NCBI RefSeq assembly: GCF_988242995.1
Contig: NZ_OZ547044.1
Reading direction: 5' to 3' (one strand)
DNA from: a plasmid
Length of the DNA stretch: 64,000 nucleotides
A program made the position numbers. The stretch's first letter is position 1. Every line of letters starts with the position of its first letter. Below are positions 28,201-33,654 of this stretch, one piece after another.

Positions 28201-31200
28201 TCTTATGGCATCCTGTAACGCGCGCTGTTGGTAATGTTAAGAATCAGGGACCAGAGCTCATCGAGGCTGTTGGCTTATGAGATGTCGGAGGCTGATCCGT
28301 GTTTTAAAGCTAATGTACGCATACATTAGCTTTAAAATTAGCCGTGCATCGTAACTAATTTCAATCATCAATATGGACAGCTATCACGACAGGGAGATTT
28401 TAAAAGCTTCAGACTTATGCATTAAAAGCAGCGCAAGTCTAATAAGTAATTATCATATTGAATATATAATTCATTTTTACAATTTATTATTGTTAGGCAG
28501 TAAAATTTAATTGTTGAATTTACCTATAAATAAAGATATTAATAAAATGTCTCCATTTTCAATAAAGGAACTTATCATGAGCTGGTTTAATGACGTATTT
28601 GGATTCGAAGAATCAGACTATGCAGAGACTCAGGCTCGTTTTTTCCAGGAAGGCCCTTTTCTTCATACCAGAAGCCAGCCATCTGTTTCTTATCGTTCTG
28701 GTATTCTGACCATGCCGAGTCTGGCCGAATTAAGGAAAGCGGTCAGCAATCTTGTGACAGAACCGTATGGAAGGTGCAGATTTGACATACTTGAGGCTGA
28801 TGCATATGACCTCCACCGAAAATCCGAAGTGAAGGGCGCGCTGATCCAGGTTGCCAGTCAGTTCAACTTACTCGAAATGCCATGTGAATATACAACGCCA
28901 GAAAAGGGGATTACCGATTACCAGTTTGATCATACTCAAGGACCTGCCTGCGCTATGGCCTGTGCTGCTGCCACAGTATTTCGTAATTATCTTGTCCCGA
29001 TGGGGTCACAGACTGGACAATCCACTACCAGCCAGCTTAACACGCTGGCTGATATGGAAAAGGCTATCGGCATTGATGGCATACGAATGAAAAACGGGTA
29101 TGCCCTGATGTCGGCTAATACGGTGCAGGCTATTAGCCGTTATATTGCATCGCTGGATGAGCAAATGCGGGACAGGCTCAGACAGGAGTTACGCATCGGA
29201 TTGCACTCAGATACTGAAGTCACTATACCAGGAGTACCTGAAGATCAGTTTGTGTCTCAGGCTCTCTGCTCTGCCTTACCTGTCGCGTATAACTCATCTC
29301 CCCGGGAAGAATGGGCTCCTTTTGCATCGCTGGTACTGGAAGCCAGTTACGAAGCAACGTTGCTGGCAGGTGTTCTGAACTACCGGCTTACAGGCAATCC
29401 GAGAGTATATGTGACTATGGTCGGAGGCGGAGCATTTGGTAATGAACCTGGCTGGATAATTTCTGCTCTCAGGCGTGCCTTATATCTGGTCAGCCATCAT
29501 AATCTGGAGGTGATGTTTGTAAGCTACCGACATACTCCTGCAGCTTTATATTCATTAATTGAGGAATTTTGACCGATACAGTTTGTCATTCTAAATAAGA
29601 ACAACATATAATGAATTCGACAGCATTTAATTAAGGAGTGATTTATGAATGGGTATATCGTCACAATCATTATCGCATTCATTTTCGGTCCCATTCTGGC
29701 GTTACCGGTAATGTTCTTAGGTTTGTTTAATATAATGGATTTTGCGCTGTATTCATTCCCCATATTTTTCTTTTGTATTATGGGGTACAGGCAAGATAAG
29801 AAGGTTAAGGATGCTTTTAAGGGATTAATACCGGGCCTAATTGTATCTCTGATTATGACGACTTTAGTTCTTTTTGTTAAAGATCAGAGCGACTGTACGA
29901 ATAAATATGATACAGGTAGTCTGTCTGCTGCTGTGTGTGAGAGACTTAAGGGACCAGGATTTAGATAACGGAAGCCTTTACGGTGGCGCAGCTCGTCACG
30001 GAACGCGTCAGCCTGCTCTATGCCCGGCAGATGGTTTTGATTCAATGCGTGATCATGTGGTCATAGTCACCGCCATTGCAGCGGCGCCGAGAGACGTCGT
30101 TTATCAGTCTGTGTCGTGAGTTGAGTCCTGATCGCAGAAGTTCAGACCGCCCAGACTTTTGAGTTGTCTTAAGTCACTGAGATAGTCCTTCCCGGGCACT
30201 CCCATTTTTAGACACGCCGGACATCTTAACTTAGCCATAGGCAGATAATACAACTTTGCTGCCACAGCATTGGTGCGCTTAATGCGTTTTATGTTAAATA
30301 TCAAATACTTACTTCGTTAGCGTGACATAAGTTGATGTGTTTGTCGTGTCGTGACAGCACAATCAGGGATGTCATCCCCTAACGAGGCAAGGACTAAGTT
30401 AATGAACAGAACAGCTCAAGAAGTACAGACTTGCTGGCTTGAGAGCCGGCAGCCTGAAGATCGTACCGGTAATGAAGCGGAAAAATTTTCGGATGAATGC
30501 TGGAAGAACGGTCTGCGGCTGGATAAAAGCCCGTCTGTGCACTATCAACTTCTGATGGAAACCATCCGCAGGACGCTGATCCCGCGGCCAAAGTGAAGGC
30601 CTCCGTCGGTCTCCACTATTATCGCTACCGGGTTAGCCGTCAGGCATGGCCCGGTTTAAAAAGATATGCTGACAGTTCTGCTGCAGTTATATCAAAATCG
30701 AGTTGCTGGATTAATTCTGCCAGTTTTTTCTCTGCAGTATCACGATCAAACTGATTTTGTACTATCTGGAGAGCAACCTGTTTTAGCTCCGGAGGGAGGT
30801 GTTCCAGATTGATATGATTATAACCCGAAATGTCATCATCCGAATTTTCGAAGAGCCAGCCGTAACTCATAAGGTCACCTGTTCTATTTCACAAATTTCC
30901 AGACACCTGGCGGTACCCGGTCATACAACTTTCCCATCGTCATCTCCGCCAGCCGGTGATCAACCGCGGCATTGAAATGCTCAAGCTCATCATCTGACAG
31001 AGAATATTGATTTTTTTCTATTATCCTTTCCAGGGTTTCCTTTGATGTACAGCGCCTTAGTCGAAAAATCCATTCCTGTTTCGTCATTAGTTTTATTTAT
31101 CCTGAGGTATCCCGGTAATATCATTCTGGAAGATGCTTTTCTTTCAGTCGGTTATGAGTGAACCATTTTGCATATGTGATGTAAACCACAAAAGTTAAGA

Positions 31201-33654
31201 GTGAGGACAGGCTATATATCCAGAGAACAGGTACCACCTGATGGAAACGTATCATCTGACCGGATTCATCTGCCAGACTCATTAATGCATTGCTGTATGG
31301 TTCAGTCTGAAAGAACTCGTAGTAAGGTACCATCACAACGTGAAGAAAAAATAAATTAAGAAGATACGTCAGAGAGAACGCGTGCTCCTGCCCGTTATAG
31401 GGCGCATACTGCGCGAAGGCGAACATCCATCCTGTGAAAAGCAGAAAACACATCGCGAAATACACCACTACCCATACCGCTGTTTTCATCACTGCCCTCA
31501 GTTATATAATTTGTCTGTAACGAAAATGGCATTCAGGCGTTCAGATCCGTGCCGTTCTGCTTCAGATAATCACTGATGCTCAGACCGGACAAGCGAATGT
31601 TATCCGAAATCTCCCTGAACTGCTCCTCCCAGCCGTCCTGCAGCTCCCTGATTGCCGCGATCTGGAAAGCAACACTGAAAGGCGTTCTGCCCAGTTTCTC
31701 GGAAAGCCAGAACAGATGCTTGCCAATCTCTTCATCCGGTACCGAATCGAGCGCATCACTCAGTAAGGTTTTTTCGTCTTCCTGCCAGGGATGACCGGCT
31801 CGCGGAAAACGCGGATCAGGCTGGCGGTCTTTTTTCTCCCTTTTTTCCCGTCTGGCAACGGTCGGCGCATCGCCTTTTTTCAAGCCGACGCGCGCTTTCA
31901 TGGCGCCGATAGCGGCGACGGCCAGTACCAGCGTTTCACGCTCCTGGCGCGTGAGCAGGCTGTCCTCGCAAATCAGGGTGTTCAGGTTATCGATCAGCTT
32001 ATTCAGCCCGGGTTCAGTGACTTTCATTTTATGCTCATATTCCTTGTGTGGTGGCGATCAGTCCCGGCTCTCATTCACCTGGACGGTGACCGGCAGGCCT
32101 GCATCAAAACAGGTCTGATACCAGCTGGCCACCTGAAGGGGATCGCCCTCTTTTATCCGGCGTATGCCGCCGGCATCCGTCAGCTGCAGGCAGGTGGTAC
32201 CGTCCAGACGGATCACGTAGGCCGCTTCCCGCAGGGAGTAATGACCGTCACCCAGCTGCAGCTCCACCGCGTCACCGGCAGCCGTCTGGCGTAACGGCAG
32301 ACGCCGGACGTCTGTCAGTCGTTGTCGTGCCGTTTCAGCCTCGCGTTCTGCCTGGAAGAGCGGTTCTGCAATGCCGCGACCGTCCTGCGTCAGCTCGACG
32401 GCCAGCTGCAGGTTCGGGGCGCGCAGGGTACGCAGCCAGCCCGCGGCTTCCATGCGCCGGCAGGAGGCGCGCAGGTTCGGCCCGTACACCGGGGCGTCCC
32501 CGCCCTGCTCCAGCACCCGCTCGATATCCCGCGTCGCCACCGGGCCCGGCCGTTTCGCATCGAGGGCGGCCAGCACAATCAGCACCCGCCGCTGCAGTGG
32601 CGACGGACGTCGGGATTTTTCCCGCATCATTGTCCCTCATTCCTCTGAGAAATGAGCGTTTTTAGCCGTTTATAGTCTGCTTCGACCCGTGTTGTGGACA
32701 GGCCAGTGTGTCCACGCAGCGCCAGGAGATACCAGAAACGGAGGATGTCATGAGCCTTGTTCACTTCCCAGACATAATGGGTTCCATCCCTGCGAAAATC
32801 GCATTGCTTTATTTCCTCTTCTGCCATCTGCGTCATCTGCTCATAGCTGAGTGAAAACGTCATTTTCTGATCCATCCTGCACGCTCCGTCTGAACATGTC
32901 CGGTTTAGTCAAAAATCATATTTCGTATGATTTATATTGCATTGAGCAAACATCATATCAGATATGATTTTGCGATTAATGATAAATATCACATTCAGTA
33001 TGATTTTATTCGCTTGGTTTGATTATCATATTCTTTGCGTGTTTTCCGCCACGCAGATCCGAAAAGATGCTGTTCCGGATCTGATTCAGCCCCGCCGGCG
33101 CGCAGCGGCCCAAAAACACAAGATGTAGCGGTGTTACCAGCTGACAGTGACGCTAGATGTTGTGTCCCTCCCCTGCCCCGTGACCGGCCGCTCACCACCC
33201 TAAAAGGGCGCTGTGGTTATTCCCTGACCGTGGTACACTTCCGGAAACTTCGTTATACGTGAAAAGTCGGATCAGGACGGAACGGCCGTCAGGTAATTTA
33301 ACGGCGTGGCTGTATGGCTGCTTGTTATCTCTAAGGTGATTATTTTGTATGTGAATTTCACGAAGTGAAATTAATGGCGACATAACAGTATGTTTCAGGC
33401 GGGCGTGAGTCAGCTGCATCCTTACGCTATACTGATATGCATATCATCAGTATGTATTCCGGAGTGCATTATGAAGCAGCGCATCACTGTCACCATAGAC
33501 AGCGACAGTTATCAGTTACTGAAATCCGCAGACGTCAATATCTCCGCCCTGGTGAACAGGGCCATGCAGAATGAGGCCCGTCGTCTGCGTGCCGAACGCT
33601 GGCAGGCTGAAAATCAGGAAGGGATGGCCGAGGTTGCCCGCTTTATTGAGATGA

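Follow-up and report, generated by a model that had tools for sequence, protein, structure and literature searches.

Proteins of the Hha family bind to the N-terminal domain of H-NS or StpA and strengthen the silencing of AT-rich, horizontally acquired DNA. [quoted passage not shown] The cluster of six genes described here is located at 30640-32875 on the minus strand of a plasmid stretch of 64,000 nucleotides (nt) (contig NZ_OZ547044.1 of the NCBI RefSeq assembly GCF_988242995.1), and this whole stretch is referred to as the window. The cluster carries an hha gene in the fifth position, behind a gene for a protein of 190 amino acids (aa) from the family YdeA. It is read here, with modest confidence, as a mosaic, YdeA-controlled backbone operon of a pKpQIL-like plasmid, the exchangeable passengers of which include Hha.

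All six genes are oriented on the minus strand. Gene 1 (32627-32875; an open reading frame (ORF) call that is also an annotated coding sequence (CDS)) encodes the 82-aa head protein, gene 2 (32058-32630) the 190-aa YdeA-family protein as the proposed repressor of an upstream operator array, gene 3 (31533-32027) a 164-aa protein with the NCBI name 'DNA-binding protein', gene 4 (31121-31489) a small membrane protein (122 aa from ATG, or 123 aa from a GTG at 31492), gene 5 (30884-31087) the 67-aa Hha-family modulator and gene 6 (30640-30870) a 76-aa acidic protein. The stop-to-start gaps from gene 1 to gene 6 are -4 (an ATGA overlap), 30, 43, 33 and 13 nt, respectively, and a Shine-Dalgarno-like purine run precedes each of the six start codons. 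The GC content of genes 1 to 6 is 0.48, 0.67, 0.56, 0.43, 0.45 and 0.42, respectively, within 2.2 kb. The region is 100% identical in many Klebsiella plasmids (RefSeq/GenBank), and the same six CDSs are annotated in hundreds of F-type plasmids of Klebsiella (five as 'hypothetical protein' and one as 'HHA domain-containing protein'), and the six packed or overlapping minus-strand ORFs from 32875 to 30640 in the original prediction were recovered at their exact coordinates. The six ORFs are real genes rather than chance ORFs, because each family is conserved across divergent plasmids, the homologous cluster of plasmid pBIC1a is transcribed and a YdeA homologue has been detected by proteomics.

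The stretch upstream of gene 1 is AT-rich (GC content 0.36) and bears a candidate operator array of three 24-nt repeat units (32910-33006, strand undirected, by repeat finder), which would overlap the promoter of the operon. Within it, 17-bp palindromes of the form ATCATA-N5-TATGAT stand at 32915-32931, 32952-32968 and 32988-33004, 36-37 bp apart; two exact matches to the palindrome were observed in 64 kb against 0.01 expected, all in this array. Directly upstream of the array lies a conserved hairpin, CAGATCCG...CGGATCTG followed by GCGYGGCGGRAAAC (33054-33083, minus strand, inverted repeat I5), with a fold energy of -32.6 kcal/mol (z-score -2.7), the stem of which is conserved and the loop of which is variable in five loci. 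The 260 nt before the head gene were aligned for five plasmid lineages, whose YdeA proteins are down to about 62% identical; in all five, conservation extended to the palindromes and the ribosome-binding site as well as to a GATATGATAAT block and a GATCCG...CGGATCTGCG hairpin, and the spacers between these features diverged.

The surroundings of the cluster genes were compared by a context survey of about 35 loci together with summary counts. Allowing one mismatch, the palindrome was found in every YdeA locus (the window, L001-L004, L010-L017 and L022-L028), at a distance of 40-130 nt upstream of the head gene, and was absent from every compared locus without YdeA. The comparison is good evidence for an association of the palindromes with the YdeA pair. 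Its simplest interpretation is that the winged-helix protein YdeA binds the palindromes and autoregulates the operon, and we infer such binding from the comparison of these loci.

Two other identities of the palindromes were weighed by reading the sequences only and were rejected. Fur boxes are resembled only loosely (GATAAT), and ydeA/ydfA of pS88 are not induced by iron depletion. As for RepFIB iterons or a partition centromere, the palindromes always immediately precede the YdeA pair, also in loci with distant Rep/Par genes; a centromere role is a remote possibility. As a separate observation on this region, a 47-bp element at 33054-33100, consisting of the hairpin CAGATCCG...CGGATCTG and GCGTGGCGGAAAAC, is conserved upstream of all YdeA heads and also stands alone in IncR and other small plasmids, upstream of vapBC (e.g. 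pCfr-31816cz).

The 190-aa protein belongs to a family named 'YdeA' in F-plasmid nomenclature and UniProt, the plasmid annotation of which is always 'hypothetical'. In its AlphaFold model (predicted local distance difference test score, pLDDT, 85), a winged helix at the N-terminus (about residues 10-80) is followed by a long helix and then by a beta/alpha domain at the C-terminus (109-185), and YdeA, as modelled, has a winged helix-turn-helix fold. The profiles of MarR, HxlR and PadR were unmatched by YdeA (in Pfam only PaaX at an E-value of 0.25, in NCBIfam nothing), the best hit of the YdeA family in a PDB profile search was IdeR at an E-value of 0.5, and the only family match was phrog_19460 in PHROGs, of unknown function. 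By using Foldseek against the AlphaFold database, only proteins named 'YdeA' or uncharacterised proteins were retrieved, and the C-terminal domain was unmatched. No functional study of YdeA or of the cluster was found in the literature, most subscription journals being outside the search.

The 82-aa protein of gene 1 was without a match in Pfam, NCBIfam, PHROGs, PADLOC or PDB. Its homologues (25-96% identity) are located upstream of every YdeA examined, and gene 1 invariably comes with YdeA; within the pair, conservation is highest in the DNA-binding domain of YdeA. The two members have been reshuffled, as the identities to the small protein and to the YdeA C-terminal domain of the window are 96% and 46% in L022 and 34% and 95% in L003, respectively. 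The C-terminal domain of the window type (32058-32375; 95% identical in L003 and L010) is present only where the 164-aa gene follows, and the loci with other types of this domain (46-55% identity) are without the 164-aa gene; simple linkage and a functional match are both conceivable. The YdeA homologue WP_004152103.1 has been detected in a Klebsiella pneumoniae proteome (PMC12470040). With three mismatches, the ydeA gene at 32380-32411 matches a 32-nt CRISPR (clustered regularly interspaced short palindromic repeats) spacer reported from chromosomal arrays of K. pneumoniae as targeting 'ydeA' (PMC6965323), which means that this backbone gene is a target of host immunity.

The small gene and ydeA form an invariant head unit, downstream of which the content varies. 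The head pair stands alone in Salmonella plasmids (L014 and L022); it is followed by genes for the 164-aa protein, an Mrr_cat nuclease and a product of 262 aa in a Klebsiella lineage (L010), by a DpdC-like DUF6884 protein (PADLOC, E-value 3.6e-43) in a metagenomic plasmid (L025), by four small ORFs in Pectobacterium (L024) and, after a gap of 263 bp, by a HEC-04-like ATPase and a ProQ/FinO protein in E. coli IncFIB plasmids (L004). The passengers are separable in the same manner. The membrane gene is missing from a 164-aa, Hha and 76-aa arrangement on IncFIB/IncHI1B virulence-type plasmids and is absent from the versions in L019 and L018, so that by sequence comparison it is dispensable in relatives. 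On plasmids of the pKPN3 type, two other small ORFs take the place of the 76-aa gene behind Hha, and members of the 76-aa family stand, without Hha, behind an Abi_2 gene (Cronobacter) or VapBC (Serratia). Judged from these arrangements, the cluster divides into at least four separable units, namely the head pair, the 164-aa gene, the membrane gene and the 76-aa gene. As a further occurrence of the 164-aa family, a homologue with 50% identity stands alone in the K. oxytoca chromosome (L005, 6001-6492), between folD and a LacI/SBP fusion gene, and is followed by an unrelated secreted Cys-rich 98-aa protein.

The prevalence of the genes was estimated by tblastn against 72,556 plasmid records (PLSDB). 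YdeA was present in at least 5000 of them, i.e. at least 7%, and among the matches listed, Klebsiella accounted for 2238, Escherichia for 1968 and Salmonella for 468. The 164-aa protein was found in 3093 plasmid records, mostly of Klebsiella, and Hha at an identity of at least 80% in 2132. The exact six-gene region was covered to at least 80% in 376 records only, the commonest shared block was that of YdeA, the 164-aa protein, the transmembrane (TM) protein and Hha, and outside Klebsiella YdeA occurs without this Hha.

By its sequence, gene 5 is a bona fide Hha, as had been predicted from the DNA. It gives a full-length family match to NCBIfam NF008191 (129.3 bits with a cut-off of 90, residues 1-67 covered), it has the PDB relatives YmoA (2k5s, 1.8e-26) and Hha (1jw2/4icg, 5e-25), and it is 60% identical to Hha of E. 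coli K-12. The motifs RLRRC and DHRLAE are kept as the equivalents of Cys18 and Asp48 (in the K-12 alignment, DHRLAE falls on D48-HRLAE), and PMC4519777 reports Asp48 of Hha as essential for H-NS binding. As no H-NS homologue was found in the 64-kb window by tblastn, the Hha of gene 5 would need host H-NS or StpA as its partner, and it presumably acts with chromosomal H-NS. No TomB-like partner was found when the five partner proteins were compared with K-12 TomB by BLASTP (best E-value 3.6), and the partner proteins gave no TomB match in Pfam or NCBIfam.

In the proposed mechanism, transcription would start in the AT-rich region upstream of gene 1 bearing the three 17-bp palindromes, to which YdeA, possibly together with the gene-1 protein, would bind, and the operon would be autoregulated and kept low. 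The downstream genes, for the 164-aa protein, the three-TM membrane protein, Hha and the 76-aa acidic protein, would be exchangeable cargo on this promoter. Hha, as the sole part with a known activity, would join host H-NS/StpA and reinforce the silencing of AT-rich plasmid DNA and, by analogy with R27 and other plasmids, should damp plasmid gene expression including conjugation and lower the cost of carriage.

The genes are laid out as in an operon, with one strand, short or overlapping junctions and no internal terminator-like site in a weak scan. No sigma-70-like promoter or terminator-like hairpin was detected on the minus strand inside the cluster by this consensus scan, which is a weak test, and separate promoters and terminators for each gene, which would have spoken for separate transcription, were thus not seen at that sensitivity. 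The six genes probably share one promoter. For the pBIC1a cluster, a pKPN3-type paralogue with 93% identity, the RNA-seq values (RPKM, read counts normalised to gene length and sequencing depth) are similarly low over the leading five genes, at 77, 85, 47, 37 and 87; its tail, made up of different genes, gives 191 and 535, and a tacAT-like pair gives 269 and 333 (PMC6286996). These values fit, and do not prove, a weak common transcript with additional downstream promoters. The operon of the original prediction accordingly stands in its co-directional, tight layout behind one conserved upstream region, and its single transcript across six genes is what we infer from that layout, the RPKM values of pBIC1a being indirect.

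Several points weigh against a YdeA-controlled mosaic operon. The core of YdeA, the 164-aa protein, Hha and in part the TM protein is stably linked in about 2000 Klebsiella plasmid records, and some functional coupling is possible on account of this linkage. YdeA is assigned to the palindromes from co-occurrence only, and a host factor or the gene-1 protein could bind them instead. No minus-strand sigma-70 promoter was found upstream of gene 1 by the consensus scan, and the -35 and -10 hexamers could not be placed by eye with confidence in the conserved upstream block. The RPKM of hha in pBIC1a (87) exceeds that of the membrane gene before it (37) by a factor of 2.3, the values of the tail genes rise further (191 and 535), and with this rise internal promoters are conceivable.

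The original prediction had suggested that the genes around hha are components of a plasmid stealth or host-modulation module. Such a dedicated six-component module, in which Hha would work together with, for instance, a partner that binds DNA, a sensor in the membrane and an acidic modulator, would agree with the tight packing and the single conserved upstream control region, with the co-inheritance of the YdeA, 164-aa, TM and Hha core at about 93% DNA identity in a second plasmid lineage and its co-inheritance in many Klebsiella plasmids, and with the 164-aa and Hha genes remaining adjacent where the membrane gene is lost. However, every partner occurs without Hha (the head pair alone or ahead of other cargo, the 164-aa protein with an Mrr-like nuclease or on a chromosome, and the 76-aa protein after Abi_2 or VapBC), the membrane gene is dispensable, and Hha of the pKPN3-type is followed by different small ORFs. 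Moreover, the GC content is heterogeneous between the genes (0.42-0.67) and none of the partners is TomB-like. The Hha-centred module was therefore not upheld, and a dedicated module of this kind is considered unlikely.

Equally unlikely in our estimate is that genes 1 and 2 are a toxin-antitoxin (TA)-like pair, i.e. a small toxin and YdeA as a helix-turn-helix (HTH) antitoxin, as in HigBA or MqsRA, with autoregulation and with the downstream genes as read-through passengers. The two small genes with their ATGA overlap and the palindromic operator array upstream have the look of such a pair, which is moreover extremely prevalent, occurs as a stand-alone unit and has TA systems (ccdAB, vapBC, tacAT and parDE) as its neighbours in plasmid maintenance regions. 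Yet no similarity to toxin or antitoxin families was found in Pfam, NCBIfam and PADLOC, and in PHROGs only phrog_19460 of unknown function was matched. The partners do not co-vary (96% against 46% in L022 and 34% against 95% in L003), unlike cognate TA pairs, and co-transcribed cargo is unusual for TA operons.

In other plasmids, genes beside or behind the YdeA head frequently resemble defence genes. The observations come from 3828-5384 and 6848-8986 of L004, 5588-6235 of L025, 6557-8273 of L010 and 3364-4413 of L029, and they include two ATPases, one HEC-04-like (2.6e-41) and one of PDC-S06 (4.8e-286), the DpdC-like protein (3.6e-43) and the Mrr_cat nuclease; in addition, an Abi_2 gene precedes a 76-aa homologue. 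Such neighbours suggest a variable cargo slot downstream of YdeA, in a sample that is small and without statistical control. If this slot were one for defence or anti-defence cargo, the 164-aa, membrane and 76-aa proteins would serve in phage or plasmid exclusion and Hha would be incidental. This is thought improbable, and slightly more so than the two explanations above: the nuclease, the DpdC-like protein and the two ATPases are indeed cargo or neighbours of head pairs, and the 76-aa homologue does come after Abi_2, but among the six proteins of the window there was no significant PADLOC match (best E-values 0.0018-0.02, every one from a short and partial alignment), Hha acts as a co-repressor of transcription and not as a defence effector, the context sample is the small, uncontrolled one just described, and the ATPases of E. 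coli are 263 bp from ydeA or divergently oriented.

The partners of Hha were without a described function in the original prediction, and this is borne out, since profile searches of the ORFs in Pfam, NCBIfam, PHROGs, PADLOC and PDB gave no known function; for the five partners, phrog_19460 (with YdeA) was the only significant match in the first four of these. PDB profile searches with the 164-aa, 82-aa and 76-aa families found nothing. The model of the 164-aa protein (pLDDT 78) has a hairpin of helices at 5-50 and, after a disordered linker rich in Lys, Arg and Glu (52-67), a C-terminal domain of five helices (83-158), and the fold search with this model was uninformative. Its family is narrow and confined to Enterobacterales: an exhaustive profile search of 1.84 billion representatives gave 111 matches, mostly fragments, with no annotated distant relatives. 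The profile also matches a three-repeat protein, P0446 (E-value 5e-6 across 1.84 billion proteins; hhalign probability 76%), which itself matches Myb_DNA-bind_6 at an E-value of 0.018 and GcrA at 0.1; the 164-aa protein is without a direct Pfam match, and the Myb/GcrA-like resemblance of its C-terminal domain stayed below significance.

The coiled-coil-like hairpin for oligomerisation, the basic flexible linker and the helical, putatively DNA-binding C-terminal domain of the model would fit a plasmid-borne functional analogue of H-NS that recruits the adjacent Hha. On this reading, F-type plasmids of Klebsiella would bear, under YdeA control, a self-contained silencing pair with no sequence relation to H-NS, and the membrane protein and the acidic protein would be optional modulators. 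No sequence or fold homology of the 164-aa protein to H-NS, MvaT, Lsr2 or Rok was found, and such an analogue is regarded as doubtful, at about the level of the defence slot.

The membrane protein and the acidic 76-aa protein were both named correctly in the original prediction. The product of gene 4 has three hydrophobic segments by hydropathy and no significant Pfam match, and that of gene 6 is acidic (isoelectric point 4.45), belongs to an orphan family on Enterobacterales plasmids and is without a Pfam or PDB match.

Last, the six genes might be independently transcribed neighbours left adjacent by recombination, which is likewise improbable: their mosaic composition and separable inheritance, the RPKM steps of pBIC1a (37, 87, 191 and 535) and the persistence of hha and the 76-aa gene behind an IS903B insertion in L018 speak for it, but junctions of 13-43 nt offer scarcely any space for promoters, neither terminator- nor promoter-like sites were found on the minus strand inside the cluster by the weak scan, and a conserved regulatory region lies upstream of gene 1 only.

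Around the YdeA-controlled mosaic operon that is preferred here, one flank carries ccdAB, a resD-like integrase gene, parA, a RepB-type initiator gene and umuDC, and the other carries two hypothetical genes, an SRAP peptidase gene and IS26. Another fragment of the window has its matches in plasmids laid out like pKpQIL, and with these flanks the cluster is placed in the IncFIB-type maintenance region, not the leading region, of a pKpQIL-like plasmid. Between the cluster and ccdA, where nothing is annotated, lies an imperfect inverted repeat of 15 nt, ACACAAGATGTAGCG / CGCTAGATGTTGTGT, the halves of which are 20 nt apart (33116-33165). Downstream, the cluster is bounded by a convergent 64-aa ORF (30402-30596, plus strand; hypothetical, WP_019725033.1), which ends 43 nt from the stop of the 76-aa gene, and a GC-rich hairpin at about 30565-30587, inside the 3' end of this ORF, might serve as a shared terminator. 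At the junction of the 164-aa and membrane genes, a strong sigma-70-like match (TTTTCA-16-TATAAT, 10/12) is located on the opposite strand (31483-31510, plus), from which an antisense RNA running through the 164-aa gene could arise.

Elsewhere in the window, a second, degenerate partial copy is located at 9199-9699 (plus strand). It consists of the final 20 codons of a gene like that of the 164-aa protein (9199-9258, 75% identical), followed by a membrane-protein paralogue with 52% identity (9289/9316-9699), and it is cut on the left by a Tn3-family transposase gene (4984-8481) and a resolvase gene (8549-9190). When an intact version of this 9.2-9.7 kb copy was sought, all 361 of the 361 matching plasmids were found to carry the same truncated form. 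The linkage of the 164-aa and TM genes in a diverged lineage hints that the two may travel together.

The Hha subfamily of gene 5 is present in about 2000 Klebsiella resistance or virulence plasmids, including backbones like those of pKpQIL, pKPN3 and pLVPK, and it is probably driven by a YdeA-type head (the small protein, the winged-helix protein and the triple palindromic operator) that is annotated only as hypothetical. This head is spread over plasmids of Klebsiella, E. coli and Salmonella, and if the proposal is true, a common regulator gating interchangeable cargo (Hha, nucleases and DpdC-like proteins) would offer a handle on the adaptation between plasmid and host. The 164-aa protein, as a narrow orphan family adjoining Hha, is a candidate Hha partner and is directly testable.

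Compared with the chromosomal tomB-hha of E. coli, gene 5 is likewise a full-length Hha (60% identity, equivalents of Cys18 and Asp48 kept), whereas here TomB has no homologue, a three-TM gene lies upstream and a 76-aa acidic orphan downstream, and the whole is a six-gene cluster on a plasmid. With hha/hns of R27, the 'stealth' protein Sfh of pSf-R27 and H-NS/Sfx of IncX plasmids (PMC7074111 and PMC11796372), the locus shares a plasmid that carries its own nucleoid-silencing accessory protein, for which an effect on plasmid cost and transfer is to be expected; in contrast to them, no H-NS paralogue was found in the 64-kb window and hha sits behind a YdeA-type head. Because a plasmid-borne Hha is a known route into H-NS silencing, the hha gene itself is not news and the Hha part is ordinary; it is the YdeA/operator head and the 164-aa protein that are genuinely uncharacterised. 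That head is like the reverse-order type II TA systems (HigBA, MqsRA and HicAB) in its two small overlapping genes, the second of HTH type, its upstream palindromes and its maintenance neighbourhood, and differs from them in sequence and family, in the lack of partner co-variation and in the long co-directional cargo. The 'YdeA' of the F plasmid and ColV plasmids (pS88108 and pBIC_00155) is of the same family as the 190-aa protein and has the small upstream gene and the same palindromes, but in E. coli and Salmonella the C-terminal domain is 46-55% identical, and the 164-aa gene and this Hha are both missing behind it. Finally, in comparison with the winged-helix autorepressors of the MarR, HxlR and RosR types, YdeA is without a Pfam match to MarR, HxlR or PadR and possesses an extra C-terminal beta/alpha domain, and its gene stands behind three candidate operators at a spacing of 3.5 turns.

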